In this document: positions 435-61,024 of the stretch, one piece after another
Position numbering within the stretch: the first letter of the stretch is position 1
Layout of the letters: each line of letters starts with the position of its first letter
From: Heptranchias perlo
Taxonomy: Eukaryota
Direction: 5' to 3'
DNA length: 64,000 nucleotides
Assembly (NCBI RefSeq): GCF_035084215.1
Contig: NC_090329.1
Location: forward strand, 23,994,001 to 24,058,000
Position numbers and translations under genes: made by a program
The notes under the pieces: generated by a model
The model's database searches: none
What the model was told of the DNA's origin: nothing
The model's input: only the letters and a program-made list of their open reading frames with translations

Positions 435-1671
435 CGTCCCGTGTTAGTCTCCTGAGGAAGTCTATGCGATTTTTTGCTGTGGCCCATCGGAACTGTCGAT
501 CGATGAGTCGAGCGTCATATCCCGTTCTTACTAGGGCGTCTTTCAGCGTCTGTAGGTGTCCATCGCGTTCCTCCTCGTCTGAGCAGACCCTGTGTATTCG
601 CATAGACCTCCTCAGGAGACTAACACGGGACGCAACCAACAGAGTACCCTTTGTCGTCCAGTACTTCCCCGGAGCGGAGAAACTACGCCATGTTCTCCGC
701 AGCCTTCAACATGTCATCAATGACGACGAACACCTCGCTATGGCCATCCCCACACCTCCACTACTCGCCTTTAAACAGCCACCCAACCTCAAACAGACCA
801 TCGTTCGCAGCAAATTACCTAGCTTTCAAGAGAACAGCATCCACGACACCACACAACCCTGCCACGGTAACCTCTGCAAGACATGCCAGATCATCGACAC
901 AGATACCACCATCACACGAGAGGACACCACCCACCAGGTGCATGGTTCATACTCCTGTGACTCGGCCAACGTTGTCTACCTCATACGTTGCAGGAAAGGA
1001 TGCCCCAGAGCATGGTACATTGGCGAGACCATGCAGACGCTGCGACAACGGATGAACGGACACCGCGCAACAATCGCCAGAGAGGAGGGTTCCCTCCCAG
1101 TTGGGGAACACTTCAGCAGTCAAGGACATTCAGCCACCGACCTTCGGGTAAGCGTACTCCAAGGCGGCCTTCGAGACACACGACAACGCAAAATCGTCGA
1201 GCAGAAATTGATAGCCAAGTTCCGCACCCATGAGGACGGCCTCAACCGGGATCTTGGGTTCATGTCACGCTACACGTTACCCCACCAGCGAACAAATGTT
1301 ATCTGTTTTTAATATAACGGGTCAGTTGCTGTCTTTTCTATGTTTCTACCTCTCTATCTCTGTTTTTTTTTGTTTGTTTTTTTTTGGTGATTTGTATATT
1401 CGGAGACCTTGCAGGTAACACCTGTCTGTCTGCACACTGATTGCCTTGGCAACGGGCAGTTGAAAAAACTGTCTGTAATCACCAAGCATTGTTCTGTGAA
1501 TTATAAATGCGATTTCATTTCGAGGATTTCATTTCCAACAAACGTTCACCTGAGGAAGGAGGAAGCCTCCGAAAGCTTGTGAATTTAAAATAAAATTGCT
1601 GGACTATAACTTGGTGTTGTAAAATTGTTTACAATTGTCAACCCCAGTCCATCACCGGCATCTCCACATCA
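435..1671 (+). mobile_element. Penelope-like retroelement, 5'-truncated with inverted 5' segment; GIY-YIG endonuclease and 3' region with hammerhead
   Basis: Open frame to 1312 with CKTC, VVYLIRC...WYIGET...RMNGH...EQKLI...GLN (PLE GIY-YIG); 435-597 reads as upstream PLE sequence on the - strand; CpG-rich; 3' end atcaccggcatctccacatca is nearly identical to the copy at 60741. Confidence 0.93.
1545..1583 (+). ncRNA. Minimal type-I hammerhead ribozyme motif (PLE-associated)
   Basis: uucac-CUGAGGA-a-ggagg(aag)ccucc-GAAA-gcuu-gugaa: stem I, conserved core, stem II, palindromic AAGCUU in place of stem III. Confidence 0.85.
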
Positions 1672-2440
1672 CGTATAATTCTATGACATAGAATGAGCTA
1701 AAAATTTGAGAAAAGCAACTTTAAATAAGTAGGTATGCTGAATCTTAATGTTATTGTAGCATATGTTGTTTCATTTAAACATTTCAGGGAAATATTAATG
1801 GTAAAACGTAGTAAGATGTTTCCTTCAGTTACAGAACATTGTGTTATTTGTAGCTATGAATTTTGATAGTCCAAATTTCCTGAAGAAATTCCTGAGTAAG
1901 ATAGTTTGTAACAAAGGTTGACCCCAGCTAAACCTCTACCTGTACTTGAAAATGGCTGTGCAGTTAACCTGGGGATTGGGTATACCAGCAGAGGAGGTTT
2001 ATTCAAAGATTTATTGTAAGTTTATATCACTGTAGATATGACACAGTAGTTTTATGACACAGTTACTCTTTTTTTTAGCCCCTCAGTACAGATCATGTAC
2101 TTTATTTGCAGGCCACAAAAAGAGAGCCCATAGTCTCACAATAGACCTCATATTAAAAAAAAATCACACTCCCAGAAGAGCGTCACCCACTGGGAACACG
2201 TGTCGGGAAATCGTGGTGTGCTCCCGCGATTTTGCATCTGTTTTGGTGAATTCATAAAATGCACCCATAAGGGCAGTTCTTGACTAATTGGGCAATGCTG
2301 AAGGGAAATCAGTTTACAACATTCAGATCGCCCCACTTCAGGTGTCCTTAAAATCTGCCAGCTGATGACCAGTGTAAACTTCATCACTCAGAAGGCCAAA
2401 CTCCATATCATCTCATAATCCTGATCCTACCAACCTCACC

Positions 2441-3790
2441 TCATCAGCAAAGTGATGGAAGGTGTCGTCGACAGTGCTATCAAGCGCCACTTACCCACCA
2501 ATAACCTGCTCACCAATGCTCAGTTTGGGTTCTGCCAGAACCAATCAGCTCCAGACCTCATTACAGCCTTGGTCCAAACATGGACAAAAGACCTGAACTC
2601 CAGAGGTGAGGTGAGAGTGACTGCTCTTGACATCAAGGCAGCATTTGACAGAGTGTGGCACCAAGGAGCCCTAGTAAAATTGAAGTCAATGGGAATCAGG
2701 GGAAAAACTCTCCAGTGGCTGGAGTCATACCTAGCACAAAGGAAGATGGGAGTGGTTGTTGGAGGCCAATCATCTTAGCCCCAGGACATCGTTGTAGGAG
2801 TTCCTCAGGGCAGTGTCCTAGGCCCAACCATCTTCAGCTGCTTCATCAATGATCTTCCCTCCAACATAAGGTCAGAAGTGGGGACATTTGCTGATGATTG
2901 CACAGTGCTCAGTTCCATTCACAACCCCTCAGATAATGAAGCAGTCTGTGCCTGCATGCAGCAAGACCTGGACAACATCCAGGTTTGGGCTGATAAGTGG
3001 CAAGTAACATTTGCGCCAGGCAAGTGCCAGGCAATGACCATCTCCAAGAGAGAGTCTAACCACTTCCCCTTGACATTCAACAGCATAACCATCGTCGAAT
3101 CCCCCACTATCAACAACCTGGGGGTCACCATTGACCAGAAACTTAACTGGACCAGCCACATAAATACTGTGGCTACAAGAGCAGGTCAGTGGCTGGGTAT
3201 TCTGCTGCGAGTGACTCACTTCCTGACTCCCCAAAACCTTTCCACCATCTACAAGGGACAAGTCAGGAGTGTGATGGAATACTCTTCACTTGCCTGGATG
3301 AGTGCAGCGCCAACAACACTCAAGAAGCTCGACACCATTCAGGACAAAGGACCCTGCTTGATTGGCACCCCATCCACCACCCTAAACATTCACTCCCTCC
3401 ACCACTGGCGCACCGTGACTGCAGTGTGTACCATGCACAGGATGCACTGCAGCAACTCGCCAAGGCTTCTTCGACAGCACATCCCAAGCCCTGACCTTTA
3501 CCACCTAGAAGGACAAGAGCAGCAGGCACATGGGAACACCACCACCTGCACGTTCTCCTTCAAGTCACACATCATCCTGACTTGGAAATATATCGCTGTG
3601 CCTTCATTGTCGCTGGGTCAAAATCCTGGAACTCCCTACCTAACAGCACTGTGGGAGTACATTCACCTCACGGACTGCAGCGGTTCAAGAAGGCGGCTCA
3701 CCACCACCTTCTCAAGGGCAATTAGGGATGAACAGTAAATGCTGGCCTTGCCAGCGATGCCCACATCCCATGAATGAATAATAAAAAAAA
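2441..3790 (+). mobile_element. Non-LTR retrotransposon (CR1-group, second family), RT to 3' end, decayed
   Basis: QFGF, ALDIKAAFDRVWH, GVPQGSVLGP, FADD motifs; 3' tail aaatgctggccttgccagcg...gaataa(A)n; second copy at 31474-33233. Confidence 0.88.
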
Positions 3791-3825
3791 ACCTCTTCCC
3801 CTCCTCACTCGACAATCCTCACCTG

Positions 3826-4280
3826 TGGCTTAGTGGTAGTATTCTCGCCTGAGTCCAACGGTTGTGGGTTCAAGTCCCACTCCAGAGATTTGAGCACATA
3901 ATCGAGGCTGATACTTACTTCAGTGCAGTATTGAGGGAGTGCTGCATTGTCGGAGATGCTGTATTTTGGATGAGATGTTAAACTGAAGCCCCATCTGCCC
4001 TCTCAGGTGGATGTTAAAGATTGCATGGCACATTTCGAAGAAGAGTTGGGGAGTTTTTCTCGGTGTCCTGGCCAATATTTATCCTTCTACCAACATCACT
4101 AAAACAGATTACCTGGTCATTATCTCATTGGTGTTTGTGGGACCTTGCTGTGCACAAATTGGCTGCTGTGTTTCCTACATTACAACAGTGACTACACTTC
4201 AAAAAGTACTTCATTGGCTGTAAAGCACTTTGGGACGTCTGGAGGTCGTGAAAGGCGCTGTATAAAAGCACGTTCTTTAT
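3826..4280 (+). mobile_element. tRNA-derived Deu-domain SINE (SacSINE1-like) with L2-type tail
   Basis: A box ggcttagtgg, B box gggttcaagtccc, central gagggagtgctgca...gatgagatgttaaac...ctctcaggtggatg, tail tgtaaagcactttgggacg...aggcgctgtataaa; several copies in window. Confidence 0.8.
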
Positions 4281-4697
4281 TTCTTTCTCTCTCCCTTCTG
4301 CCTGATAAAATCGTTTTTAACGTGTTCTTTCTTTCTCATAGTCATGGATTCAGAGTGGAACATCACAGCCAGACAGCCTTTTTGCAATTGGTGATTCGGT
4401 TACGAGTAAGACAACACTGAGTCATCAACAACATAACTCACTTGTTGTAGTTGTCAGTTTTCCAATAAATGACCAAAAAGCCTCAGTTAGACCTGAGCGA
4501 TGAAACAAGTGAAGGTGCTGATGATAAATCAGTTATTTAACCCAACAATAGTATTTGAGCATTTGGCCATGTGCATGTTTTAGTACACTTCAATTCATTG
4601 GGGTTAATGTTACCAACAGTATTTGAGTAAATTAAATTCTAAATATTGCAAAGTTTAAGTCGCATAACAGTTTGTTATGTTTTGTTCCATATTCCAG

Positions 4698-4747
4698 GTG
4701 ATTTTCAAAGCAAAATCCAAGTACTACCCAGAGCTTCAAAAATACAG
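4698..4747 (+). CDS. GPR137B: GPR137B exon 2 (VIFKAKSKYYPELQKYR)
   Basis: ccag acceptor, AG|gtacag donor, 50 nt; matches recalled human VIFKAKSKYSPELLKYR. Confidence 0.9.
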
Positions 4748-4999
4748 GTACAGTCATAATCTACACTTTGTTACCATTATATAGTAGTCACAGTCTGTCA
4801 TTATTATATAGTCATAATCTACACTCAATTACCATTATGTAGTAGTCACAATCTACAGTATATTACAATTATGTAATATAGTCACAATCTACACTGTATT
4901 ACAATTATATAGTACATTCACAGTCTACACTCTATTACAATTATGTGGTACAGTCACAGTCTACACTCTATTGCCATTGTATAGCACAGTCGTAATCTA
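4748..4999. repeat. Degenerate ~36-bp minisatellite, left part
   Basis: About 7-8 units like gtacagtcacaatctacactctattaccattatata, starting at the exon 2 donor. Confidence 0.85.
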
Positions 5000-6475
5000 A
5001 GAACATAAGAAACAGGAGCAGGAGAAGGCCATACGGCCCCTCGAGCCTGCTCCACCATTCAATAAGATCATGGCTGATCTTCTACCTCAACTCCACTTTC
5101 CCGTCCCATCCCCATATCCCTTGATTCCCTTAGTGTCCAAGCATCTATCGATCTCAGTCTTGAATATACTCAACGACTGTGCATCCACAGCCCTCTGGGG
5201 TAGAGAGTTCCAAAGATTCACAACCCTCTGAGTGAAGAAAGTTTTCCTCATCTCGGTCCTAAATGGCCGACCCCTTATCCTGAGACTATGCCCCCTAGCT
5301 CTAGACTTCAGCCAGGAGAAACAGCCTCTCAGCATCTACCCTGTCAAGCCCTCTAATAATTTTATACATTTCAATGAGATCACCTCTCATTCTTCTAAAC
5401 TCCAGAGAATATAGGCCCATTCTACTCAATCTCTCCTCATAGGACAACCGTCTCATCCCAGGAATTAATCTAGTGAACCTTCGTTGCACCCCCTCTAAGA
5501 CAAGTATACCCTTCCTTAGGTAAGGAGACCAAAACTGTACGCAGTACTCCAAGTGTGGTCTCACCAGAGCCCTATATAATTGCAGCAAGACTTCTTGTAC
5601 TCCAACCCCTTTGCAATAAAGGCTAACATATCATTTGCCTTCCTAATTGCTTGCTGCATGTTAACTTTGTGATTCGTGTACAAAGGACACCCAAATCCCT
5701 CTGACTACCAACAGTTCTTAGTCTCTCACCTTTTAAAAAATATTCTGCTTTTCTATTCTTCCTACCAAAGTGGATAATTTCATATTTCCCCACATTATAC
5801 TCCATCTGCCACCTTCTCACCCACTCGCTTAACCTGTCTATATCCCTTTGCAGACTCTTTGTGTCCTCCTCACAGCTTATTTCCCATCTAGCTTTGTATC
5901 GTCAGCAAACTTGGATACATTACACTTGTTCCCCTCACCTAAGTCATTGATATAGATTGTAAATAGCTGAGGCCCAAGCACTGTTAGTTGCGGCACCCCA
6001 CAGTTACAACTTGCCAATCTGAAAATGACCCGTTTATTCCTACTCTGTTTTCTGATTGGTTAATCAATCCTCTATCCATGCCAATATATTACCCCCACCC
6101 CCATGAGCCCTTATCTTGTGTACTAACCTTTTGTGTGGCACCTTCTCAAATGCCTTTTGAAAATCCAAATATGCTACATCCACTGGTTCCCTCTTATCTA
6201 TCCTGCTAGTTACATCTTCAAAAATCTCTAATAGATTTGTCAAACACGATTTCCCTTTCATAAAGCCATGTTGACTCTGCCTAATCATATTATGATTTTC
6301 TAAGTACCCTGTTACTAAATCCTTAATAATAAATTCTAACATTTTCCCTACTACTGATGCGAGGCTAACTGGCCTATAGTTCCGTGTTTCCTCTCTCCCT
6401 CCTTTCTTGAATAGCCGGGTTACATTTGCTACCTTCCAATCCACAGGGACCATTCCAGAATCTAGGGAATTCAGG
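5000..6475 (-). mobile_element. CR1 LINE, 5'-truncated (RT to 3' tail), inserted in the minisatellite
   Basis: Minus-strand NYRPVSL, QHGF, YLDFQKAF, LVRPHLEYCVQFWSP; candidate TSD AATCTA at 4994-4999 and 6476-6481. Confidence 0.92.
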
Positions 6476-6595
6476 AATCTACACTCTATTACCATAGTAT
6501 AGTTACATTCTACAGTATTATTATTAGAACGTTCAGTCACAATCTACACTCTGTTACAACTATATTACCATTATATAGTACAGTTACAGTATATC
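6476..6595. repeat. Minisatellite, right part
   Basis: Same unit resumes: aatctacactctattaccat...cagtcacaatctacactc. Confidence 0.8.
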
Positions 6596-7239
6596 TTACA
6601 CTGGTTAACAGGCTGGATCTTATTTATGCAAGCTGAGATGAAGTCATTTAATTTAATGCTATTGTGAAGATCTCGTTTTGATGGCAATAAGAAAGCCACG
6701 AGAGATTGCCTGTTAATTATGTTACGAAATCATAAACATGAATGGAAAGGATGCCTTTGTGATTTCACTATCAATAGTGAATAAAGGAAATTTCTAGACT
6801 GTTAGAAAGATAAACCAAAGCTGCACAATGCAGCTACATTAAGGTTTAGAATTATCAATAATTAAGTCAGGAAAAACTCTCAAGAAACATAGTCTGTTTT
6901 CAGAATTTACAATCTTAAAAAAAAGTGAAAAGCTGCTACCTGGGGTCAAGTCTGCCCACTGGCTCAATACTCTGAGTGAGATTGTGCTCCCTTATTACTG
7001 AGTAACTCCAGGTATACTGGAATATCTATTTTCTGAGGACCAGACCCATCAAGCTAGATTTTCAGCATTGTTGCCTGGTATTGCCAAATTTTCGGAGAAT
7101 ACTCAATTGGCATTGAATACTTTAGCCTCTGCCACTGCACATCCAAATCACAGCAATTAGACTGTAGGTTTAGATAGGTAGTTGCTAGAGAATCAGTTGC
7201 TGAGACATATTCATAGGTTGTATAACTTAGTTGATCTAA

Positions 7240-7473
7240 GGCAAGATGAGGAGAATTTTTTTTGATGCAGCGTGTGTTATAATCTGGAATGCGCTGCCTG
7301 AATGGGTGGTGGAAGCATATTCAATAGTAACTTTCAATTGGATATGGATATATACTTGAAAAGGAAAAATTTGCAGGGCTATAGGGAAAGATCAGGAGAG
7401 TGGGACTAATTTGATAGCTCTTTTAAAGAGCCGGCACAGGTATGATGGGCCTTCTGTGCTATAAGATTCTATG
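7240..7473 (+). mobile_element. CR1 3' end fragment
   Basis: ggaatgcgctgcctgaa...gggactaatttgatagctc...gattctatga, near-identical to other CR1 tails here. Confidence 0.8.
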
Positions 7474-7597
7474 AACTCATTTTTTGTTATACTGACATGC
7501 ACACTTCATTTGGAAGAAAGGTAACAACATGCAGTACAACTTATATAAGAATGTCCTTGCTTGTGTGCTTGTTGATAAATGCTGCATGTTGATAACT

Positions 7598-8160
7598 CAA
7601 CAACAACTTGCATTTATATAGCACCTTTAACGTAGTAAAATATCCCAAGGCGCTTCACAGGACCGTTATCAGACAAAATTTGACACCAAGCCACATAAAG
7701 AAATATTAGGACTAGAAAGAGGTAGGTTTTAAAGAGCATCTTAAAGGAGAGAGAAGTAGAGAGGCAGAGGTTTCGGGAAGAAATTCCAGAACTTAGTACC
7801 TAGGCAGCTGAAGGCAATGGTGGGACGATGGAACTTGGGGATGCACAAGAGGCCAGAATCGGAGGAACGCAGAAGTCTCGGAGGGTTGTAGAGCTGGAGG
7901 AGGTTACAGAGATAGGGAGGGGCGAAAACAAGGATGAGAATTTTAAATTCGAGGCCTCGCCGGACCGTGAGTCAATGTAGGTCAGCTGGCACAGGGGTGA
8001 TTGGTGCAAGTTAGGATATGGGCAGCAGAGTTTTGGATGAGCTCAAGTCTATGGAGGATGGAAAGTGGGAGGCTGGCCGGGAGAGAATTGGAATAGTCGA
8101 ATCTGGAGGTAACAAAGGCATGGATGAGGGTTTTAGCAGCAGATGGACTGAGACAGGTTG
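7598..8160 (-). mobile_element. L2 LINE 3' fragment
   Basis: Minus-strand LIHAFVTSRFDYSNSL...QNSAA; tail caacaacaacttgcatttatatagcacc. Confidence 0.85.
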
Positions 8161-8205
8161 AGTCGATGTTGAACTCATACTGAATCGGTTTGTTTTTCAT
8201 TCTAG

Positions 8206-8428
8206 GCTGCCTCTCCAGTTGGTTTTCCTGCTGGCCAGTCTCCTGTTCCTTGTGGTAAACCTGACCTGCGCATTGCTTGTGAAGATCACACACACCGAAA
8301 CCAAGACCATTGTGTTTGTCCGTGTTGCCATCAACGATACCCTCTTTGTGCTGTGTGCAATCTCACTCTCTGTGAGCCTCTACAAGATCGCTAAAATGTC
8401 CCTGGCCAATATATATTTAGAATCTAAG
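8206..8428 (+). CDS. GPR137B: GPR137B exon 3 ([13 protein letters not shown]...[11 protein letters not shown])
   Basis: tag acceptor, AAG|gtttgt donor, 223 nt, in phase; [14 protein letters not shown] and [12 protein letters not shown] motifs. Confidence 0.95.
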
Positions 8429-9184
8429 GTTTGTTTCAGTAACTGGGTCATGACTTCATTTTCCTGTTAAGACTTTACGGGGAGTTTTCTTCTGATCATT
8501 TTCTTACCAATTCATTGCTGTGGTGATTAAAAGTAACGAAAACAATGATCTCAAGTCATGATGTTCCAGCAGAAATAATGGATTAGTAACAGTGGTAACA
8601 TCTAATATGGAGAGGGGGCAGATAGAGAGTCACTGACACTGGTCCAGTGTAAGACCACTTTAGCCCCATCAAGCGGATTCTGATTCCAGTGTTACAATTT
8701 AATTTTACAGTTACTGCAACAGGATATTATTTGATGAGTGAACCGAAGTGGACTGTACCAGTTTGTTTCAGAATCAACTTATAAGGATAATACTAATCCA
8801 CATCTTTTATGCCCGTCCGTCCGTTAGAACTACTAAATAGGTGTCCATATGATATCCTCAAATCACAATGGCACTTGGTTTGTGGTCTATCTCTCATTCT
8901 ATTTATGATTCTAAACCTGGAAATATTAAATCTCCACCATAGGATGTTATTTCTGTCTGTGAGTCAGGCATAACCATGATTGGAATGTGATCAAAGATAA
9001 TTCAATCTACGAAGATTGCAATCATGGCCCCGACCATCTCCCATAACCAAAATAAGCAACCGATTTAGGAACAAATATATAACCCGTCTTCAATTGGTTT
9101 TGTAGACTCATCATTCTGACAAGCCCAGCTCACTGCTTGGTACTGGCATCACTTCTACTCCATCTTTGATACTGGCATCACTTC

Positions 9185-10180
9185 AACGACAACAGCAACT
9201 TCCATTTATATAGCGCCTTTAACGTAGTAAAACATCCTAACTCGCTTCACAAAAGCATTATCAAACAAAATTTGACACAGAGTCACATAAGGAGATATTA
9301 GGAGAGGTGACCAAAGTCTTGGTCAAAGAGGTTGGTTTTAAGGAGTGTCTTAAAGGAGGAGAAGCAGAGAGGTTTAAGGAGGGAATTCCAGAGCTTTGTG
9401 CCTGGGCAGCTGAAGGCACGGCCGCCAATGGCGCAGCGATTAAAGTGGGGATGCACAAGAGGCCAGAATTGGAGGAGCAGAGGCATCTCGGAGGGTTGCA
9501 GGGCTGAAGGAGGTTACAGAGATAGAGAGGGGCAAATCCATGGAGGGATTTGAAAACAAGGATGAGAATTTTAAAATCAAGACGTTACCGGACCGGGAGC
9601 CAACGTAGGTCAGTGAGCACAAGGGTGATGAGTGAACAGGACTTGGTGCGAGTTCAGATACAGGCAGCAGAGTTTTGGATGATCTCAAGTTTATGGAGGG
9701 TGGAAGATGGGAGACCAGCGAGGAGAGTATTGGAATAGTCAACTCTAGAGGTAACAAAGGCATAGATGAGGGTTTCAGCAGCAGATGAACTGAGGCAGGG
9801 GTGGAGATGTGGCGATGTTATGGAAGTGGAAGTAGGCGGTCTTGGTGATGGAGCGGATGTGGGATCGTAAGCTCATGGATCGTAAGCTAATCTCAGGGTT
9901 AAATAGGATGCCAAGGTTGCGAACGGCCTGGTTCAGTCTCAGACAGTGGCCAGGGAGAGGGATGGAGTCGGTGGCTAGGGAACGGTGTTTGTGGTGGGGA
10001 CCGAAGATAATGGCTTCAGTCTTCCTAATATTTAGATGGAGGAAATTTTTGCTTATCCAGTACTGGATGTTGGACAAGCAACATGACAAATCAGAGCCAG
10101 CGGAGGGGTGGAGAGAGGTGGTGGTGAGGTAGAGCTGGGTGTCGTCAGCGTACATGTGAAACCTGATGTGTTTTCGGATC
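9185..10180 (-). mobile_element. L2 LINE fragment (RT C-terminus to 3' end)
   Basis: Minus-strand FHMYADDTQLY, LNIRKTE, VRNLG; L2 tail. Confidence 0.88.
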
Positions 10181-10679
10181 AACTCCATCTTTGATTATTT
10201 TTCCCCCACCCTGTCTCAATTTGTCTAATAATGGTTCCGGAAGTAAAGTGAAGTCTTTCCCATCCAGCTTCATCAATCTGGCGCTCACTTATTGCAAAAA
10301 GGTGCTGTTTTTATACTCAGGGTATGTTTGCTCCCTCCCCATGACCCCATCACTACAATGAAACCATCATATCGAAACCATCATATCAAACCCCTCAATT
10401 TGTGTCTTCCCATATTTCCCAGCAGGGAGATTTCCTATTGTATTATTTACCTCCTGTTTAAATGTTCTTAATATTATCCAGATCTTAATACAACTTATTA
10501 GCAAATAGTAACTCAAACACTCCTCTGCTCTCAGGAATGCGATGAATATGCTGTCTTTTTTATAGCCATCAACATTCAATTACAACAAAATTCCTTTAAG
10601 CTTCAGCATTGAAACGATACTCCCCCCAGAACCAAAAGACTTTGGTTTCCGGGCTCAAACTACCACCTGTTATACCACC

Positions 10680-12642: not shown

Positions 12643-12677
12643 TGAGGTGCTGACATGTTATTATTGGTCTCACACAG

Positions 12678-13417: not shown

Positions 13418-13469
13418 GTAATTACTAGAAACCGATTTCTGGCTCCACTACAATTCAAGTGCTAGGATT

Positions 13470-21785: not shown

Positions 21786-21846
21786 TTACCTCTTGTCCTT
21801 TAACAGCATTTTGAAAATCTGTAACTCTTGTATACTTGTTGACAGC
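21786..21846 (-). CDS. ERO1B: ERO1B terminal exon 16 (LSTSIQELQIFKMLLKDKR*)
   Basis: ttccag acceptor, in phase, TAA stop; aligns to recalled human LSTSIRDLQNFKVLLQHSR. Confidence 0.92.
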
Positions 21847-23999: not shown

Positions 24000-26900
24000 C
24001 TATAATGGGGAATTTGGTGAGTGAGTTGCATGTGTTTAGACAGCAGAGTGGACTGTACTGAGAGCGGGTCACAGCAACAACAAAACTTCAGTGTGATGTC
24101 ATAGGTAAGGCAGGTAGGTGGTTGATAGTGAGTATCTCTTCTGTTTTCTTCTTAGGACTGTGGGCTAAGTAACTTATAGCATAAAACTAATTTTAAAAAA
24201 AAACTAAACTTAATTTAATACATTAAACAAGGCCAGTACTTGGTTCAACCTAAAAAATAATTTGATTGAGATTGTAGCAATCAATTAAATAAATGTTATG
24301 ACAGGGCAGGAGATGTGATGCAGCTGCAATATGTGCGAGCTACTGGACAGTTTTGTCCAGGGCAGCTACATCTACAGTAAGTGTCTGCAGCTTGAGGAAC
24401 TTCGGCTCCGAGATGAGGAGCTGGAGTCCGAGCTGCAGACATTGTGATGCATTAGGGAGGGAGAAAGCTACCTGGAATGTCACGCCTTAGACTAAATACT
24501 GTAGAATTGGCACATGGTCCGGGACAGGAGGGTGTGACTGCGAGCGAGACGGGTACGGGAATCCAGGAGGTAGCATTGCAGGAGCCTCAGCCTCTGCACT
24601 TGTCCAATAGATACGTGGTTCTTGCAGCCCTTGTGGACGAGTGCATGGACCGCAGGGAGGATGAGCAAACTGGCCGCAGCACTGTGGTTCAGGGGGCCAT
24701 TCAAGTGGGGGGAGTAAAAAGGAATGTGGTTGCAGTAGGCGACAGTATAGTTAGAGGGATAGACACTGTTCTCTGCAACCAAGAGCAAGAGTCCCGAAGG
24801 CTGTGCTGCCTACCCGGTGCTAGGGTTAAGGACATCTCCTCAGGGCTGGAGAGAAACTTGGAGGGGGAGGATCCAGTTGTCGTGGTCCATGTAGGTACCA
24901 ATGACATAGGTAGGACTAAGAGAGAGGTTCTGCTGAGGGAGTTTGAGCAGCAGGGGACTAAATTAAAAAGCAGAACCATAAGGTGATAATCTCTGGATTA
25001 TTACCTGAGCCATGAGCAAATTGGTACAGGGTAAATCAGATCAGAGAGATAAATGCGTGGCTCAAAGATTGGTTTGGGAGAAGTGGGTTTTGTTTCTTGG
25101 GGCACTGGCACCAATACTGGGGAAAGAGGGAGCTGTTCCGTTGGGATGGGCTTCACCTGAACCATGCTGGGACCAGTGTTCTGGCAGACTGAATAACTAG
25201 GGCGGTAGAGAAAGCTTTAAACTAAATTGGGGGGGGGGGGCTCAGCTGGGGTGAAGTTTAGATTGATAGAGACAAGACAAGGAAGTAGTACAGGAAAGTG
25301 ATGGGGGTAATGATGAACAGAGTGTGTACAAACATGTGTGCACTAGCAAATGGGGCCAGGGTAGGAAAGAATGGTAAAAAGACAAAATTAAAGGTTCTTT
25401 ATCTGAATGCGCACAGTATTCATAAGATAGATGAATTGACGGTACAAATAGAAACCAATGGGTATGATCTCATGGCCATTACAGAGACGTGGTTGCAAGG
25501 TGACCAAGATTGGGAGCTAAATATTCAGGGTTACTTAACATTTTAGAAGAAAAGGAAAAAAGGTAAAGGTGGTGGGGTAGCTCTGTTAATAACAGTTGAA
25601 ATTGGTATAATAATGAGAAATGACCTTGGCTCAGAAGATCAAGATCTCTAATCAATTTGGGTGGAGGTAAGAAATAGCAAGGGAAAGAAATCACTGGTGG
25701 GAGTAGTATATAGGCCCCCTAACAGTAGCTCCACTGTAGGACAAAATATAAATCAGGAAATAAGGGGGGCTTGTAAAAAAAGGTATGCAATAATCATGGG
25801 CGATCTTAACTTTCACATAGATTGGATAAATCAAATTGGCAAAAATAGTCCTGAGGAGGAGTTCATAGAGTGTATTCAGGACTGTTTCTTAGACTGATAA
25901 GTCGGGGAACCAACCAGGGAAAAGGCCATTTTGGATCTGGTAATGGGTAACGAAACAGGATTAATTAATGATCTCAAAGTAAAGGATCCCTTGGGAAGCA
26001 GTGATCATAACATGATGAATTTCACATCCAGTTTGAGAGTGAGGATTTTGGGTCTGAAATTACTGTATTAAACTTAAATAAGGGCAATTATAAAAGAATG
26101 AGTGCAGAATTGGCTAAAGTAAACAGATTAGATGGTATGATGGTGCATAAGCAGTGGCAAACATTTAAAAAGATATTTTATGACTTGCAACAAAAATATA
26201 TCCCTATGAGGAGGAAAGACTCCATAAAAAGGGTGAACCAACCATGGCTAACTAAGGAAGTCAAGGATGGTATCAGGTTAAAAGAAAAAGCATACAACAT
26301 GGAAAAGATTACTGGTAAGCCTGAAGATTGGGAAAACTTTAAAAACCAGCAAAGGATGACAAAGAATAATAGAGGGAGAAAATAAATTGAGAGTAAACTA
26401 GCAAGAAACATAAAAACTGACAGTAAAAGCTTCTACAAGTGTATATTAAAAAGGAAGAGGGTAGCTAAAGTAAACATTCATCCCTTAGAGGATGAGATTG
26501 GGGAAATAATAATGGAAAACAAGGAAATGGCAGAGGAATTGAACAGATATTTTGTATCTGTCTTCACAGTAGAAGACACTAATAACATGCCAATAATAGT
26601 AGAAAATCAAGGGGCAAAGGGGAGGGAGGAACTAAAAACAATCACTATCACTAGAGGAAAAAGTACTAGGTAAACTAATGGGTCTAAAGGCTGACAAGTC
26701 CCCTGGACCTGATGGCTTGCATCCGAAGGTCTTAAAGGAAGTGGCTACAGAGATAGTGGATGCATTGGTTGTAATCTTCCAGAATTCACTAGATTCTGGA
26801 AAGGTCCTAGCGGATTGGAAAACCACAAACATAACACCCCTATTCAAGAAGGGAGTGAGACAGAAAGCAGGTAACTATAGACCAGTTAGCCTAACATCTG

Positions 26901-50080: not shown

Positions 50081-50134
50081 GAAATAGAAAATAGCTTCAA
50101 GGAGTATAATATAGAGGAAATTAAAAGAAAGTAC

Positions 50135-50255
50135 TTGAAGCAGTTCTCTTCATAGATGCTGTTCCACACCCTCCAAGCTGACAATCCCCTGTACCCAGTG
50201 TAACGCTCTGGATTCAGGAGGAGATCCACATATTCTGCATCAGGCGACAACTCAT
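50135..50255 (-). CDS. ERO1B: ERO1B exon 7 ([23 protein letters not shown]...EENCFK)
   Basis: gcag acceptor, gtactt donor, 121 nt; [13 protein letters not shown] and IYEENCF. Confidence 0.97.
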
Positions 50256-50309
50256 CTGCAGGGAGAGATTAATTATCACTTTCAAGAAACAGTCTCCACT
50301 TTATTTACA

Positions 50310-51280: not shown

Positions 51281-51599
51281 CTTTATGTACTTTACATAGC
51301 GTGACCTGTATTGGCAACACAATTCTACCCGTCTCAGTCCTATAATAATTTGGCACAACATCATACAAATTTGAATAGAAGCAAATTTCCTTTTATTTAT
51401 ATACAATGTGATTGATATATATTTCAAAAAAGATACAGCATAATTCATTGAATTTTCAATTAAATCATCAGGTGGCTATGTGAAAGTGGCTTTGTTAAAA
51501 TTGAACCGAATCAAAGAAATTACAACACAAGCTGTCATTATGCCACGTGCAGCTGCACTGGTGCTAGCTCTTCAACTGCAGAATCTCATGTAATTCCAT

Positions 51600-52170
51600 T
51601 TCACTGCCCTTTTCTTGTATCCTTCCAGATTCTTACTTTCAAACACTTACCCAATTCCCCTTCAAATCATGATTTATTCTCTGTCTCAATAGCCACTTAT
51701 AGTAAAGCATTCTTCTTGTTTTAATAACCCTGTTGTGTGGAAACAAGTTTTTTTTTTAACTTCCTCTCTATTCTGTTCGTGACAACCCTGACTATATGCC
51801 TCTGGTTACTAATTTGCCTTACAATGGAAACATTATTTCACTTTTTACCCTTGCAGAGCCTGTCATAATTTTGAAAAACGATATTAAATCCCCTTTAACC
51901 TTTACTGCTTGTGGAAAAAGATCCAATTTTTCAAGTCTGTAACACCTCATTCCTGATATCATTCTAGTGCATCTTCACTGCAGCCTTTCCATGACTCTAA
52001 CATCCTTCCTATAATGGAGTGCCCAGACTGCACAAAATACCGCAACATAGTCAATGAGACAAATCCAGCACAACTTCCTTGCTTTGGTATTGAACACTTT
52101 TGTATATAAAACAGCCAAAATCCATTTACCCTCTTATGCCTTCCTACCTGCATTTCAAACTTTAAAGTTT
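51600..52170 (-). mobile_element. Old CR1 3' fragment
   Basis: Minus-strand LRYFVQ remnants and CR1-like end. Confidence 0.6.
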
Positions 52171-52489
52171 AAATCTTGATTCTGTAAAAATCAAAATATG
52201 CACAAAAAAGGGAGGACAGAGTCTTACCATCAAGTACCCTTTTAAAAATAGCATTCACACTAGGAATAACAATACGCCTGGATAACATAATGAGCTTGAG
52301 AGAGAACTGACGACACATACGCTGTTGAAATGAAGCATCTGGATTAATATCAATCTCTACTGATGCCAATTCAGCTGCCTTAAACTGCAGATACTAACTT
52401 CCCCGTATCAATTCCTACTGACACGACCAGCACTCGCTGTTCAAACTAAGTTATTCACAAAGATAAAAGAATCCAATTTAACAACAGTT

Positions 52490-55312
52490 TGGTATTTAAA
52501 GACCAAGATGTAGAATCAGTTTGGGTAGAGATAAGAAATAGTAAAGGCAAGAAGTCACTTGTGGGAGTAGTTTATAGGCCCCCTAACAGTGACCACACTG
52601 TAGGACAGGGTATACAGGAAGAAATAATGGGGGTTTGTGAGAAAGGAACAGCGATAATCATGGGTCATTTTAATCTACGTATAGATTGCAAGAATCTGAT
52701 TGGTAAAGGTAGCCTAGAAGATGAGTTCATAGAGTGCTTTCAGGACAGTTTCTTAGAGCAGCACGTTCTAGTGCCAACCAGAGAGCAGGCTATTCTAGAT
52801 CGGGTAATGTGTAATGAGACAGGATTAATGACCTCATTGTAAAGAAGCCTCTAGGTAGCAGTGATCACAACATGATTGGATTTCACATTCAGTTTGAGGG
52901 AGAGAAGAGTAAGTCTAAGACTAGTGTTTTAAACTTAAATAAGGGCAATTATGAGGGCATGAAGACAGAGCTGGCTAAAGTGAACTGGGAAATTAGGTTA
53001 AGGGATAGGTCAGTAGAGATGCAGTGGCAGACATTTAATGAGATATTTCATAACACTCAGCAAAGATACATTCCAGTGAGAAAGAAAGACTCTAGGGGAA
53101 GGACATATCATGTCATACTTCCTAGAAGTAAAGGGAATTAGGGGTTACGGGGAGCGGGCAGGAAATTGGACATGAATTTAGATTTGAGGTTAGGATCAGA
53201 TCAGCCATGATCTTATTAAATGGCGGAGCAGGCTCGAAGGGTCGATTGGCCTACTCCTGCTCCTATTTCTTATGTTCTTATCATCCGTGGCTAACTAAGG
53301 AAGTTAAAGATAGTATCAAAGTGAAAGAAAAAGCATACTATTCCGTGAAGGTTAGTGGCAGGTCAGAAGATTGGACAGAATATAAAAAACAGCAAAGAAT
53401 GACTAAAAGAATAATAAGGAGGGAGAAATTAGAGTACGAGAGAAAGCTAGCTAGAAATATAAAAACAGTAAGCGTTTCTACAGGTATTTAAAAAAGAAAT
53501 GAGTAAGTAAAGTGAGCATTAGTCCTCTAGAGTGAGAGTCTGGGGAATTAATAATGGAGAACAAGGAAATGGCAGATGAATTGAACAGATATTTTGCATC
53601 TGTCTTCACTGTAGAGGATACAAATAACACGCCAGAAATAATGAATCAAGAGGTGAAAGGGAGTGAGGAACTTAAAACATTTATAATCACCAGGGAAAGG
53701 GTTGTGAAAAAATGATTAGAACTAAAAACTGACAAGTCCACAGGTCCGGACGACTTCATCCTAGGGTCTTAAAAGAAGTGGCTGCAGAGATAGTAGATGC
53801 ATTGGTATTAATTTTCCAAAATTCCCTAGATTCTGGAAGGGTTCCATCAGATTGCAAAATAGCGAATGTAACTCCTCTATTCAGAAAGGAGGGAGACTGA
53901 AAGCAGGAAACTACAGGCCAGTTAGCTTAACATGTATCATAGGGAAAATGCTAGAAGCTATTATTAAGGAAGTTATAGCAGGGCACTTAGAAAATCTCAA
54001 TGCAATCAGGCAGAGTCCACACGGCTTTGTGAATGGGAAATCGTGTTTGACTAATTTATTAGAGTTCTTTGAGGAAATAACAAGCAAAATGGATAACGGG
54101 GATCCTGTGAATGTGGTGTACTTGGATTTCCAGAAGGCATTTGACAAGGTGCGACATCAAAGACACAAAATAAAAGAGCTCATGGTGTAGGGGGGTAACA
54201 CATTAGCATGGATAAAGGATTGGTCAGCTAACAGGAAACAGAGAGTAGGCATAAATGGGTCATTTTCAGCTTGGCAAGATGTAATGAGTGGAGTGCCACA
54301 GGGATCAGTGCTGGGGCCTCAACTATTTACAATCTATATCAATGACTTGGATGAAGGGACCGAATGTATGGTTGCTAAATTTGCTGATGACAAGAAAGCA
54401 GGTAGGAAAGTAAGTTGTGAAGAGGACATAAGGAGTCTGCAAAGGGATATAGTTAGGTTAAGTGAGTGGGCAAAAATTTGGCAGATGGAGTATAATGTGG
54501 GAAAATGTGAACTTGTCCACTTTGGCAGGAGGAATAGAAAGCAGTATATTATTTAAATGGAGAGAGATTGCAGAGCTCTGAGGTACAGAGGGATCTGGGT
54601 GTCCTAGTACACGAATCACAAAAAGTTAGTATGCAGGTACAGCAAGTGATTAGGAAGGCAAATGGAATGCTGTCATTTATTGCAAGGGGAATGGAATATA
54701 AAAGTACAGATGTTTTGCTACAGTTGTACAGGGTATTGGCGAGACCACATCTAGAATACTTTGTGCAGTTTTGGTCTCCTTATTTAAGAAAGGACATAGC
54801 TTTAGAGGTGGTTCAGGGAAGGTTCACTTGACTGATTCTTGGAATGGGGGGGGGGTTATCTTATGAGGAAAGGTTGGACAAGCTGGGCCTGTATACATGG
54901 CGTTTAAAAGAATGAGAGGTGATCTTATTGAAACATATAAGATCCTGAGGGGGCTTGAAGGGGTAGATGCTGAGAGGATGTTTCCCCTTGTAGGAGAGAC
55001 TACAACTAGGGGACGCAGTTTAAAAATAAAGGGTTTCCCATTTAAGACGGAGATGAGGAGAATTTTTTTTCTCTCAGAGGGTCATGAGCCAGTGGAAATC
55101 CCTTCCCCAGAGAGCGGTGGAGGCAGGGTCACTGAATATTTTTGAGGCTGAGTTAGATAGTTTCCTGATTAACAAGGGAGTCAAAGGTTATAGTAGGTAG
55201 ATGGGAAAGTAGGGTTGAGGTCACAATCAGATCAGCCATGATCTTATCAAATGGCAGAGCAGGCTCGAGAGGCCGAATGGCCTACTCCTGCTCTCAATTC
55301 GTATATTCGTAT
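52490..55312 (+). mobile_element. CR1 ORF2 (endonuclease to 3' tail), decayed, with nested CR1 tail at ~53112-53278
   Basis: VYRPPN, SDH, NYRPVSL, YLDFQKAFDKV, GVPQGSVLGP, FADD; nested piece flanked by TATCAT (53106-53111, 53279-53284). Confidence 0.93.
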
Positions 55313-55831
55313 TGGGGAATGTTAAAAATAGAGAACACAATTTGAAAAACACTCAAAATACATACACTCAAAATAATACAGTTTTTAAAAATATTACTCG
55401 TCAGTCTCTCATAGCATTGTTAACAGGAAAACAAGGCATTGTGCAATCTTCAGGCGAAGTGGGGTTAGAGGGAGAGGGATAATTGGACCAGGGCATGTAG
55501 ATGTAATTCAGTCCCCAGTCAAAATTATACATTATGCCTTTAATTTTATATATTTCCATTATATATTCCTATAACCACATTTATAATGGAAATGGCCTTT
55601 GTAAAGGTGTCATGCTGGAATTACACCCTCCTGCCAGTGCTACTGCTAGTCAAGATTGATCTCTGCATTTGGCTTGTTTGCAGTCAATCAGGACAGTTTT
55701 TGGACCACTAATTATTATTGAGCATTTGTAGTGTATTGGCTTAAACCTCATTTAGTCATTAAACATTTTTAGATCAAAATTTTGGAATTCTTAGGAATGA
55801 ACACTTCACCAGACGTTCACTAGATCCTTAC

Positions 55832-55905
55832 CATCAAGTTCACAAAAATGATCTTGTGCATCATCGTATCTTGCCCAATCAATGAAAGCTTCTTTTGTTT
55901 GGTTA
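55832..55905 (-). CDS. ERO1B: ERO1B exon 6 ([24 protein letters not shown])
   Basis: ttag acceptor, gtaagg donor, 74 nt. Confidence 0.96.
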
Positions 55906-56986
55906 CTAAGGACAAAAGAAAGTGTGATTTGGTACAGGAATACAAACACACCAACCAAGCACCGATAAATTGCCTATGACGTTGCAGTCAGTTGATGAAT
56001 ATAAGTAAAGTGGAGCGGGGCGCGGGGGGAAGGGCGGGGAGAAGAGCACGGGGAGAGAAAAAGAGGGAAGAGAAGGGAGCCAACAGAGAGAGCCGTAAGA
56101 TGCTTTTAGATTTCTTTCTAATAAATCAGTGTGAGCACATTCTGCAGAGACTACACCTGAATGTTCAAATCCACTTTCCACATGTTAGTCATATTGTAGC
56201 ATCATGTGCTAATGCCAAAAGTCGTAAATGAGCAGTGGCCATTACAGGTGTTTCCCTGACCCCCTTACTCCAATGGTGTGTCGAGGATGCTGTCTGAAGA
56301 AAAACTGTTCCTCGACTCCAACATCTATGATTAAGGCTTGAAGATCAGTGAAATTTATAAATTACATTGCTGTATATTTACAAGCATTAAATGCACATAA
56401 TACCATCTTGATTTCTGCTGCCACATTTGTGCTGAAATAAAGCCAAGTTTCTGACATTCCAATATGGACTTGACAGTATAAAATTTGCAGGGCTGTTCAT
56501 TCCAATTTCATATTAATGTCAAAAAAAACCTTTCAGGGTTTTCTAAATGCCAGTAAGAGCTTGGGATTGTTTAGCAGTAAAATATAGTAATGGTAAAAAT
56601 AGTACAGAAGTTGAACCAGAAACTAGTTTTACTAGCCCAGCATCATCTGTTGCCTTGGTAGGATCTTGCTTTCCATTGGTTGAAAAAAAGTGTTATGCTC
56701 TATTTATTAGAACGCTGCTTTGTTTAAGAGACCAAGTCAAACTGATTGTAATTTCACAACTGAAAAATCCTACATGTTAAAAGCGCAAACGGTTTACATC
56801 CTAATGAATGGAGTACTGCTGCATCCTTTTATAGTAAAAAGTGGGCTGCATATGTTCCAAGTGCACCACGATTCACTAAGTTGTCTGGATGAGTTGTTGC
56901 AATCAGGACCAGCACAGCTAATCTCATATCAAGAGTTAGCACAAATAAAACTGCAGCAGGTTAGATCATTGAATATTTACTCTCAC

Positions 56987-57069
56987 CTCAATGTGCTGTT
57001 GACAGCTCCAAGCTTATTCGCTTCCTCACATTCTTGCAACTGTACTACTGTATTCACTTCCTCAGAATA
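56987..57069 (-). CDS. ERO1B: ERO1B exon 5 (YSEEVNTVVQLQECEEANKLGAVNSTL)
   Basis: ctag acceptor, gtgaga donor, 83 nt; CE.ANKLGA.NSTL. Confidence 0.93.
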
Positions 57070-57498
57070 CTAGACACACAATAAAATATTAGCAAATCAA
57101 CTATGCATCTGGAAGGAATTATTAATCCACTATTTATACTGCAACAACTGAAAACATGGTAACACTGGAATCAGTTTAACAAACAAAGTTCAGAGAAATG
57201 TGCACATTCTGGATTTGAACCATATCATCTTTCAATCAGGGAATACAGTAAAAACTACATACTGTGAAAAATGTCTTTTGGTCAAGAACGTTCAACGTAC
57301 ATATACAGGGATTAAGATATTGTGTGCTATTTTGCATTTTTGCGAAAGCTTGCATTTGTGTATAGATAATTTGTAACTTTAAACGGTTTAATCACGACCT
57401 ATGCTTAACGTACCATAACTAGTCCTATGAACAAGTGATCAGGTACAAAAGTTAATTCAAATATATTTACATGAAACATCTATCAGCTGTCGACTTAC

Positions 57499-57540
57499 TT
57501 TGTTGAAATTGGCTGCTTTAATTCCAATAGGAACCTCACT
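57499..57540 (-). CDS. ERO1B: ERO1B exon 4 (SEVPIGIKAANFNK)
   Basis: ttag acceptor, gtaagt donor, 42 nt. Confidence 0.92.
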
Positions 57541-58310
57541 CTAAAAATGAAAACAAAGTGTTAAAACAGCTGCTCAAATTGAAATTGGTACTTCAAGAAG
57601 TCTCCTCAGAACATGGCCAGCAAATTACTGGATTAAGTGCATAAAGTGATTAAAGAAACTTGGGAGTAATCACACCACAAAGTAGAACACCTGACTATAA
57701 AAATGTGAAACAGTTTCCAGAATGCTCACCAAAACTAGAAGAAATCATGGAACTTTTTTCTAAAAAAGTGAAAGGTTTAAGCTTAATTTGCTGGACAACT
57801 GGGTAATCTTACATTTACTCTATTTCAGATTGGGGGTGATCATATTTAAACATGTTATTCAATTTAAATTTAATTGAGGATTTATTCCAGGGATGCCTGC
57901 TGACTGTCCTGCTGCAGTCTCTTCTTTAGCTTGCCTGCTCACCATGGCCTTCTGGCCATCCCCATCTTCAGGTCAGTTGCTCTTGCTGCCTTGGCTCAGG
58001 CAGTGATTCATATTTGGGAGCTCCGTTTTATTAATATGCTTTCTGACCATATTGCTATTTCAAATCTTTTTTCTGCTTGCTTCCAAGTTTCTTGGGCGCT
58101 CAGGACCGCGGTAAACAGATTACAATGGGATTTCTGAGGGTTGAGTAAGGGGCTGTCATGTAATGTTTGGTAAATGTGCTGAGCATATATTATTTAAGAT
58201 TTGTGATGGAAGTTTTCCCTTACTTAAATCCTGCTCAACAATTTCTATTTAATATAAAAACTTGAATTTCCCACCAAACAACATCTGTAAAACACTTCCA
58301 GACACTTTAC

Positions 58311-58394
58311 CTCAGAACAAGGCTCTACATGACAATCCTTAATCGAGCAGTGTCCATCGTTTGACCAGAAGGGACAGGGTCGCTTCAAATTGAC
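58311..58394 (-). CDS. ERO1B: ERO1B exon 3 with shuttle cysteines ([28 protein letters not shown])
   Basis: atag acceptor, gtaaag donor, 84 nt. Confidence 0.96.
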
Positions 58395-59440
58395 CTATTA
58401 AAAAAAAGGTTTACAGAGTATTTTAATCAGCCTACATCTGAACATTTATATTTAAATCTATTGGACAATGTAGGAAAAAGTTGCAGGCTATGGGGAAGAG
58501 CAGGGGAGTGGGACTAAATGGGTAGCTCTTTCAAAGAGCCGGCACAGGCACCAGGGGTTGAATGTCCTCTTTCTGTGCTGTGTGATTCTATGTCCTGAGA
58601 CCACTTATGCAAATCATAAGTTTTGTTTTACCCTAACTCTATTAGACAAGTTATTTGTGTTATAGCAGACAGAATACATCACAACTCACCTACTCATTCA
58701 TAGATTTTTACGGCACAACAAAACCAGGTTTCCACTGAATACATCGGTAACTATAATCTACTACAGGGAACTTGACAGGGTTTGCACTCAAGCTGATCAG
58801 TGGCAATTGACGTACAGACAGATGAATAAACAGTATGTTTGAAGTACGAGCCATATGTAGGACAGAAAGTTTTGTTCATCATGTTTTAGTTGTAGCCTGA
58901 AAAGGTTACCCCATTCTGCCACTAGCATTTTAGGCATCAGCCATCTCAGGCATAATTCAATCAGATCGATATTAATTTACCCCAACCTGGTAGCCATCCA
59001 TCACCTAGGGTAGCCATCCATCACCTAATCTGAAAACATTGAAAGCGGTGGACCATTCCCAGCACTAGTCATTCATGAAGAAACCATTTGGTTCAATGCA
59101 TACATGACATCTTGTAGTCACAGAATGAGGGCAATAACGCTTCAATTCTTACATGAAACATATTTAACTCCTAATGAGAAAGAATCCTTATTTTAATCAA
59201 GCCCACACATCAGGATGATGAACCAGCAGTCAGGTTTACAGAGTGGTAAGTAGGGTAAAAGTATTTACCCCCTCCAAAAAAATAAACTAATCTTGGATCA
59301 GTTCTGACACTAGAACTGCCCAAAAACTCAGCTACCATTAAACTTTGGAGTTCAATACAAAACCAACATGCACTTCAAAGTACCTTATGAAAAACATTAT
59401 TGTATACAGTTGAAAGTTTTAAGCAAGTTAAGGATCTTAC

Positions 59441-59560
59441 TTTGTAATATCTGAAGTAGTCCCTTTCTTGCAATTTCTGTAATTTAGGGAAGATCTTGTA
59501 GCTGTTGAAGTCATCAATACTTTCTATGTCACAGAAGCAGTCATCCAAGACACCTGTCAA
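59441..59560 (-). CDS. ERO1B: ERO1B exon 2 ([19 protein letters not shown]...DYFRYYK)
   Basis: atag acceptor, gtaaga donor, 120 nt. Confidence 0.96.
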
Positions 59561-59905
59561 CTATAAAAGATGACATTTTATTTTCAGGCATATAAATTTA
59601 AGATACATTCGTCTGAAATGCTTTTAATAAAATAATGTGATTGGTTCCACATATTAATAGATAAAAACTTCAAATGCTAGAAATGCACAACAGGTCTATT
59701 AGCATCTGAAAAAAGGCAAGAGAACCCCTTTATAGGGCTAACCAAAACAAAATGGGGAAGGAAGCAACTATAAATAAGTTAATGCGTTTAAATCGTAACC
59801 TGATGTGAGGTTACATACTGAAATCATCCAGCACTTTCTACCCACCAGCTACACTTTTTTGAAAAAAGGCTGAGGAAGTGCTAGACGGTATACGAAATGT
59901 GACCT

Positions 59906-60452
59906 AGAATCATAGAATCGTTACAGCACAGAAGGAGGCCATTCAGTCCTTCAAGCCCATGCCGGCTCTTTGTAAGAGCAATCCAGTTAGTCCCATTCCC
60001 CCGCTCTATCCCCATAACCCTGCAAACTTTTTCTCTTGAAATATTTATCCAATTCCTTTTTGAAAGCCATGATTCAATCTGCATCCGCCACTCTTTTAGG
60101 CAGCACATTCCAGATTATAACTACTCACTGTGTAAAAAAGTTTTTCCTCACGTCACCTTTGGTAATTTTGCCAAACACCTTAAATCTGTGCCAGTGGGAA
60201 CAGTTTCTTTTCATTTACTTTATCTAAACCCTTCATGATTTTGAACACCTCTATCAAATCTCCTCTCAACCTTCTCTGCTCTAAGGAGAACAACCCCAAC
60301 TTCTCCAGTCTATCTATGAAACTGAAGTCCCTCATCCCTGGAACCACTCTAGTAAATCTTTTCTGCACCCTCGCTAAGGCCTTCACATCCTTCCTAAAGT
60401 GAGGTGCCCAGAACTGGACACAATACTCCAGTGTTTTATAAAGGTACTCTAT
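59906..60452 (-). mobile_element. CR1 3' part (host of the Harbinger insertion)
   Basis: Minus-strand LEYCVQFWAPHFRKDV...LRGDLIEVFKIMKG; continues at 62444-62720. Confidence 0.9.
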
Positions 60453-60740
60453 GGGGGAAAAATTGGATAAGGGTCCATTCTGGGCGATGGTAGCGCGATG
60501 CGCTAACACCCCGTGCCCGACGGACCCTGGGCAGGCAAGATGCAAGTTTGGACCCAAGGGAGCACTTACCTGCAATCGGCGTTCCTTTCCAGACCTTGCA
60601 CATGGAATCAATGCAATTTGCACTTTCCACTACCAGAGGGAGATCAATCTCTTAAAGGGAGGATGTTTCTTGGAAATCTCTTAAAGGTAGCTTGTACCTG
60701 TTATTTGCTGAAAATAACAGTCTACTGTCTGCACGGAGTC

Positions 60741-61024
60741 TGATGTGGAGATGCCGGTAATGGACTGGGGTAGACAAATGTAAGGAGTCTTACAACACCA
60801 GGTTATAGTCCAACAGTTTTATTTGAAAATCACAAGCTTTCGGAGATTATCTCCTTCGTCAGGTGAGTGAGTGAATGAGAGGTTCTCAAATCGCATATCT
60901 TATATTAGGCTGGGAATCAAAGGTGTCGTTGGTGTTCAGACAGGTTAGCCACGGAAAACAGTATGTCCCAGTATACTGAATACACAAGGGTCAAATTACA
61001 CAGACAAGGAGAGAAAGAGACCCG

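Follow-up and report, generated by a model that had tools for sequence, protein, structure and literature searches.

Hammerhead motifs in GPR137-type and ERO1B introns of Heptranchias perlo are 3′ ends of abundant Penelope-like elements and likely inert in host pre-mRNAs

The stretch of the Heptranchias perlo genome considered here (NC_090329.1:23,994,001-24,058,000; 64,000 nt in full, hereafter the window) contains three minimal hammerhead ribozyme motifs, one residing in a predicted intron of a GPR137-type gene and two in predicted introns of ERO1B. Each is the 3′ end, or pseudo-long terminal repeat (pLTR), of a separate insertion of a Penelope-like element (PLE). Judging from sequence comparison, it is very probable that the motifs came with three separate insertion events, each motif being a 3′ end of this highly abundant PLE, and that they are likely to be inert in host pre-mRNAs. 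By the features through which such motifs can be recognized, they are an ordinary case of the minimal hammerhead of PLEs, for which catalysis is predicted.

A core-pattern search of the window returns exactly three matches, at 1545-1583 on the plus strand (copy 1), 30266-30302 on the minus strand (copy 2) and 60830-60866 on the minus strand (copy 3), against an average of 0.02 in 100 shuffles. These are the same motifs, with intact core, stems I and II and AAGCUU, that an earlier sequence-only reading had described. In order, each is made up of stem I, CUGANGA, one extra A, stem II, GAAA, GCUU and stem I, so that the CUGANGA and GAAA boxes, both stems and an NUH cleavage triplet are present in all three. 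In copy 1, stem I (1545-1549/1579-1583) and stem II (1558-1562/1566-1570) each have 5 bp and the predicted cut follows 1578; copy 2 has 4-bp stems I and II and a predicted cut after 30270; copy 3 has 4 bp in stem I, 5 bp in stem II and a predicted cut after 60834. The variation reported at N7 is likewise present (G, C and C in copies 1, 2 and 3), as is the compensatory fifth pair of stem II, which is G-C in copy 1 and A-U in copy 3, with a G·G mismatch in copy 2. Helix III is absent, and the palindromic AGCU (15.1-16.1) is found in all three copies, allowing a strand-swapped dimer to be drawn. The earlier assignment of the motifs to PLE hammerheads of the minimal, dimer-type kind, with CUU as cleavage triplet, is borne out. 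In the comparison with Rfam, which had been proposed as a check, covariance models gave no hammerhead match within the window at gathering score, and no hammerhead model matched around copies 1 and 3 at E ≤ 10 (copy 2 lay outside that run). This probably reflects the absence of helix III.

Sequence likeness among the loci extends far past the motifs themselves. Insertion 1 occupies 435-1671 on the plus strand and consists of a 5′-truncated forward part (598-1671) preceded by an inverted 5′ piece (435-602). In blastn comparison with a tandem unit elsewhere in the genome (L178/L179), the forward part is 91% identical, with gaps in the pLTR, and the inverted piece 98.8% identical; at its 3′ boundary, the insertion stops at the first base (A) of the start codon of the following unit. 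A second locus, L008, is 98.4% identical over 1,076 nt, and the nearest genomic copies of this insertion are 98-100% identical. Its reading frame at 599-1312 (plus strand) is the open C-terminal part of a PLE open reading frame (ORF), with a CX4CxxC linker and a GIY-YIG endonuclease containing two cysteines between motifs. The frame is 97% identical to residues 273-502 of the ORF at L003, which carries a reverse transcriptase (RT) domain (PF00078, RVT_1; E 3.8e-10), and in Atlas its product matches, at 0.97, GIY-YIG clusters of which 23-27% of the members carry PF01541; a Pfam search of the product itself gave no match at E ≤ 1. The insertion lies within the 3′ end of another repeat, of the long interspersed nuclear element (LINE) type (window 380-440 and 1672-1690). 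Comparison with the further copies of this repeat end that the window contains suggests that ~55 bp of it was deleted, with no target-site duplication.

The other two insertions lie on the minus strand. Insertion 2 (30214-30306) is a 93-nt tail-less remnant, comprising the hammerhead and 3′ end, with unique flanks; when the region was used as a 241-nt query, positions 85-177 matched other genomic copies at up to 98%, and the 93 nt are 94.6% identical to the copy 3 region. Insertion 3 (60741-61637) includes a forward part, 61267-60741, with the end of the ORF, the pLTR and a tail, and an inverted RT fragment running from 61267 to ~61637. It belongs to a different pLTR subfamily from insertion 1, and over 300 nt it is 97-99% identical to 39 further copies in the genome. 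Copies 1 and 3 agree to only ~75% in their pLTRs but to ~90% at the ends of their ORFs, and a (CT)n microsatellite lies at 61030-61065 inside the pLTR of insertion 3. With nearest-copy identities of 97-100%, all three insertions appear young, and the motifs look intact because the insertions are young (1-3% from other copies) and not through conservation by the host.

An intact form of the element is found at L184, where head-to-tail tandem units carry identical hammerheads at 3750 and 6836, spaced 3,086 nt apart and flanking an ORF of ~900 aa. One hammerhead precedes the ORF, with 92 nt between its cut site and the start codon, and another follows the ORF. Same-strand motif pairs 3,070-3,086 nt apart occur three times among the first 100 places listed. 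In its full extent (L184:672-8070) this tandem has two long open ORFs along with the hammerhead pair just described, and next to it comes an insertion of a different variant in the form of an inverted pair. As far as sequence can indicate, the family appears to have been active recently. The features of an endonuclease-bearing (EN+) PLE are found together here: a single ORF with RT and C-terminal GIY-YIG (from the L184 ORF, the RVT_1 match at L003 and the GIY-YIG Atlas clusters), tandem units forming hammerhead-bearing pLTRs, and an inverted, 5′-truncated copy with an optional tail of 30-40 nt. Pfam and PDB searches with segments of the ORF from the tandem returned no significant match, and the endonuclease part was without a Pfam match.

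Most genomic copies are 5′-truncated, frequently with an inverted 5′ piece, and their 3′ ends fall into two classes. In a sample of 27 copies of the copy 1 subfamily, taken from the window and stretches L011-L170, the 3′ end falls 55-62 nt beyond the cut site in 14 and 92-96 nt beyond it in 12; a single copy ends at 24 nt. The segment between the two preferred ends is the optional tail, at 1634-1671 (plus strand) in insertion 1; the tail is present in copies 1 and 3 and absent from copy 2. Since copies end 55-62 or 92-96 nt beyond the cut, every insertion longer than ~100-130 nt carries the hammerhead. A pile-up of 5′ junctions at the cut site, sought as a trace of cleavage in vivo, gave no clear peak: 109 junctions fall at the site, 100 two bases upstream and 31 four bases upstream, the last control being biased because its pattern excludes A in A-rich flanks. 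Copies that read through the cut site suggest a template uncut at that hammerhead or re-ligated.

Across 30 distinct variants (28 from fetched loci together with copies 2 and 3, none dropped), 93% of stem cells are paired, compared with 31-52% in slid controls. Double-sided changes occur in 18 cells, distributed over five of the ten stem pairs, and none of 500 shuffles scored as high; as the variants are related and the search pattern fixed the core and part of stem II, these figures are supportive and are not to be taken as a probability. Compensatory stem changes are present across the family, the G-C to A-U change between copies 1 and 3 being one of them. The changes separate subfamilies, which would imply selection on active elements, and the covariation points to selection in the element and not in the host.

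Close parallels exist among described systems. The minimal hammerheads of metazoan PLE pLTRs (Cervera & De la Pena 2014, PMC4209133) share with the present motifs a type I core, an extra nucleotide before stem II, the G10.1-C11.1 pair, a stem I of 4-5 bp, a palindromic 15.2-16.2 segment without helix III and a pLTR position. They also share tandem spacing of ~3 kb, inverted near pairs and thousands of solo copies. They differ in stem II (4-5 bp here versus 7-8 bp in Schistosoma) and in number, the 43,515 exact copies found here, with low sequence variation, exceeding the ~4,000 of coelacanth and ~9,000 of Xenopus. No cartilaginous fish is named in the passages of that paper compared here, though the supplements may list some. 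With Neptune-clade EN+ PLEs, as described by Craig et al. 2021 (PMC8557442), the element shares a single ORF in which RT is followed by a C-terminal GIY-YIG, a CX2-5CxxC linker, two cysteines inside GIY-YIG, partial tandems, an inverted 5′ copy and an optional 30-40 bp tail. Read in translation and judged against that description, the linker and the CCHH cysteines within GIY-YIG make Neptune the likely clade; the linker is common to Nematis PLEs as well (PMC8557442). Poseidon elements are described as lacking the linker zinc finger, unlike the PLE here. A literature search on Penelope or Neptune elements in shark genomes returned nothing relevant; repeat libraries lay beyond that search.

The Poseidon element PAc of Anolis carolinensis (Frangieh et al. 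2024, PMC11167929) resembles the shark element in having two preferred 3′ ends located 3′ of the hammerhead, which itself resides at the pLTR-ORF junction. However, the PAc ORF begins inside stem II and is cut 26 nt into the ORF, whereas here 92 nt separate the cut from the start codon that follows it. Non-LTR retrozymes (Li et al., bioRxiv 10.64898/2026.07.22.740005), as that preprint presents them, also have type I hammerheads related to those of PLE pLTRs, and copy 2 resembles a solo monomer; they form short non-coding tandem arrays, in contrast to the three solo ends in the window, two of which have ORF sequence. A retrozyme array was rejected on the same grounds, each copy in the window being solo and copies 1 and 3 carrying ORF sequence.

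Genome-wide, an exact 35-nt pattern occurs 21,756 times on one strand and 21,759 times on the other, or 43,515 times in 3.25 Gb, while the reversed control occurs 0 times. The expectation is thus 0.86 exact copies per 64 kb, with P(≥3) = 0.056, and ~2,800 windows with at least three exact copies are expected. Three copies in 64 kb are not shown to exceed chance, and the locus itself, as one among those windows, has little weight.

The orientation of the copies requires a similar comparison. The GPR137-type gene holds copy 1 in its intron 1, in sense orientation. In ERO1B, also in sense orientation, copy 3 sits in the first intron, 1,274 nt ahead of the acceptor of exon 2, and copy 2 in the last intron, ~125 nt 3′ of the last donor site. 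The statement that all motifs are sense therefore holds for the three inside the window, but not for ERO1B as a whole: intron 1 contains two intact antisense motifs outside the window (L022:2012-2050 and L023:3366-3404), giving two sense and two antisense in the gene. The uniform orientation is a window-edge effect, because intron 1 continues beyond the window with these two copies. As controls, three ITPR and three RYR genes (L031-L170), placed and oriented by Pfam matches at both ends, provided 1,397,000 intragenic bases, four spans being nearly whole and two RYR spans covered in part. A structural descriptor finds 28.6 motifs per Mb inside these genes and 0 in the reversed control. The bias in intronic orientation that the sequence-only reading had proposed looking for did not appear in the six genes, where intact motifs are sense in 22 cases and antisense in 18 (P = 0.64; 95% interval of the sense share 0.38-0.71); two tallies of these copies agree in total and differ by one in the per-gene counts of two genes. 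Broken motifs number five in each orientation (Fisher P = 1.0 against intact ones), and solo intact insertions are sense in nine cases and antisense in six (P = 0.61). Nearly half of the insertions in the six spans (16 of 34) consist of two copies in divergent inverted arrangement, with 3′ ends at both flanks, so that a sense hammerhead enters host RNA whichever way such an insertion lands. The shared sense orientation of copies 1-3 is no more than chance.

For single copies, folding predicts closed monomers, and the predicted active dimer lies 3.5-5.4 kcal/mol above the free monomers without flanks and 7.5-15 kcal/mol above them with 20-nt flanks. In tandem elements, each motif has its natural partner in an identical one at a spacing of 3,086 nt. 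For that distance, the effective concentration comes to 0.9-2.4 µM by a crude polymer estimate, versus 28-78 nM at the 30,564 nt separating copies 3 and 2 of ERO1B, which are independent insertions. That minimal PLE hammerheads perform poorly as monomers and better as dimers, as had been stated for these motifs, agrees with the published account of no cleavage by a single minimal hammerhead and low cleavage by dimers or trimers (PMC4209133). The anole hammerhead is reported to cut only in the presence of protein, and insertion to need no cleavage; in the RNA-seq described there, no ends were found at its cut site (PMC11167929). The two 3′ end positions found here correspond to the optional tail of PLEs; for the anole element, this tail is reported to mark a pair of internal start sites of reverse transcription, and the RNA needed by the anole protein reaches ~55-60 nt 3′ of the start site (PMC11167929). 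More generally, introns cut by slow hammerheads are reported still to be spliced, whereas a fast hepatitis delta virus (HDV) ribozyme blocks splicing (PMC2995048, citing Dye 2006 and Fong 2009), and in vivo RNA cutting by PLE minimal hammerheads is called unclear in PMC8557442.

A coherent account can be proposed along these lines. On RNA that is uncut or has been re-ligated, reverse transcription would begin internally, 3′ of the hammerhead, at either of two sites. The hammerhead would work slowly on transcripts of tandem elements, as a strand-swapped dimer and probably with assistance from the element's own protein. Solo intronic copies without a near partner would instead fold into closed monomers and be spliced out uncut; by analogy with the anole element, across clades, they may also lack the protein-binding RNA 3′ of the start site. 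Several points weigh against inert intronic copies. In the nearest-neighbor model the dimer of the natural tandem pair scores as unfavorably as the others, so the energetics do not discriminate. Copy 2 sits close enough to a donor site that a cut there might matter. The dependence of cutting on protein is known from a Poseidon-clade element, which is another clade (PMC11167929). Finally, the orientation sample is small and rules out strong bias only; weak selection in either direction would be missed, since the interval is wide and the inverted pairs add one copy per side.

Among alternatives, low-level collateral cutting, in which sense intronic copies would occasionally be cut in trans, through pairing to abundant element RNA or with the aid of the element protein wherever the PLE is expressed, at slight cost to the host and without function, is unlikely but the least so. 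In its favor, the cores are preserved, and AGCU does not change in any of the 30 variants, although most of this palindrome was set by the search pattern; copies 2 and 3 have stem I strands compatible with each other; and in a young family with open ~900-aa ORFs, partner RNA and protein could be present. However, intact sense copies are not depleted in the control genes, the 5′ junctions show no clear accumulation at the cut site, and the anole RNA-seq as described lacks ends there (PMC11167929). A stronger version, in which RNA or protein of an expressed element would activate in trans the sense hammerheads of introns, which number in the tens of thousands, so that host pre-mRNAs such as ERO1B (through copy 2) would be measurably cut, is quite improbable.

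Still less credence attaches to the proposal, made in the sequence-only reading, that the ERO1B copies in the first and last introns pair in cis as a double hammerhead that would cut the nascent transcript, and so regulate the gene. Both copies are sense and intact, and at 94.6% identity over 93 nt a strand-swapped dimer is possible on paper. Against this stand their separation and the low effective concentration estimated for it, the recency of both insertions, and the position of copy 3, so near the exon 2 acceptor that intron 1 could be removed ~29 kb before copy 2 is made. The arrangement is also common: three of the six control genes hold 4, 7 and 8 sense copies, with ten neighboring sense pairs within 31 kb. 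With the whole gene at two sense to two antisense and no bias in the six control genes, the proposal is not supported, and cutting of nascent ERO1B RNA by copies 2 and 3 appears unlikely. The slightest probability of all belongs to domestication, in which the host would keep the motifs for mRNA biogenesis as in RECK. Intronic hammerheads of amniotes (RECK and others, PMC6155905) are likewise type I, intronic and on the sense strand, and are thought to derive from retroelements. They are conserved across species and have tertiary contacts, whereas the copies here are young, high-copy and minimal. A conserved hammerhead of the RECK type is opposed by the 43,515 exact copies, which are the opposite of low-copy, by the missing helix III and by the 97-99% identity to many dispersed copies; copies 1 and 3, moreover, are still attached to element ORF sequence.

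The intron assignments, which agree with those of the sequence-only reading, are borne out by exons predicted from translation and splice motifs (AG/GT boundaries). What we take, from presumed synteny and familiar motifs, to be a GPR137-type gene has its exon 2 at 4698-4747 (plus strand) and exon 1 ~12 kb upstream of the window; a Pfam search of one of its exons gave no match. On the minus strand, ERO1B is represented by its last coding exon (21786-21846), penultimate coding exon (30397-30530, supported by a PF04137 match at C5:24024396-24024533) and exon 2 (59441-59560). A candidate exon 1 lies outside the window at L023:3739-3623 (minus strand), in a GC-rich setting with a hydrophobic leader and a phase-0 GT donor that fits exon 2, so that intron 1 would run ~24 kb past the window edge. 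PF04137 matches the minus strand of the window and a paralog on C10 (G000:C10:46057836-46079210) that is nearer to human ERO1-alpha. The C10 exon scores 120 bits in that comparison and the equivalent exon of the window 85 bits, so the window gene is the other paralog, consistent with ERO1B. A PLE of the copy 1 subfamily lies antisense at L023:3065-3495, ~130 bp 3′ of the donor site of ERO1B exon 1 and at the edge of the GC-rich promoter region; conceivably, its pLTR could drive antisense transcription toward the ERO1B promoter. Other kb-sized interspersed repeats in the window, at 76-80% identity (2441-3789 with 32012-33234; 4998-6477, 26239-28272 and 52499-55311), are probably older LINEs.

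If activation in trans did occur, it would amount to a genome-wide, transposon-driven ribozyme load on nascent RNA. The family, being young, with intact tandems and more than 43,000 insertions, may offer a test system for the cutting of RNA by PLE hammerheads in vivo.

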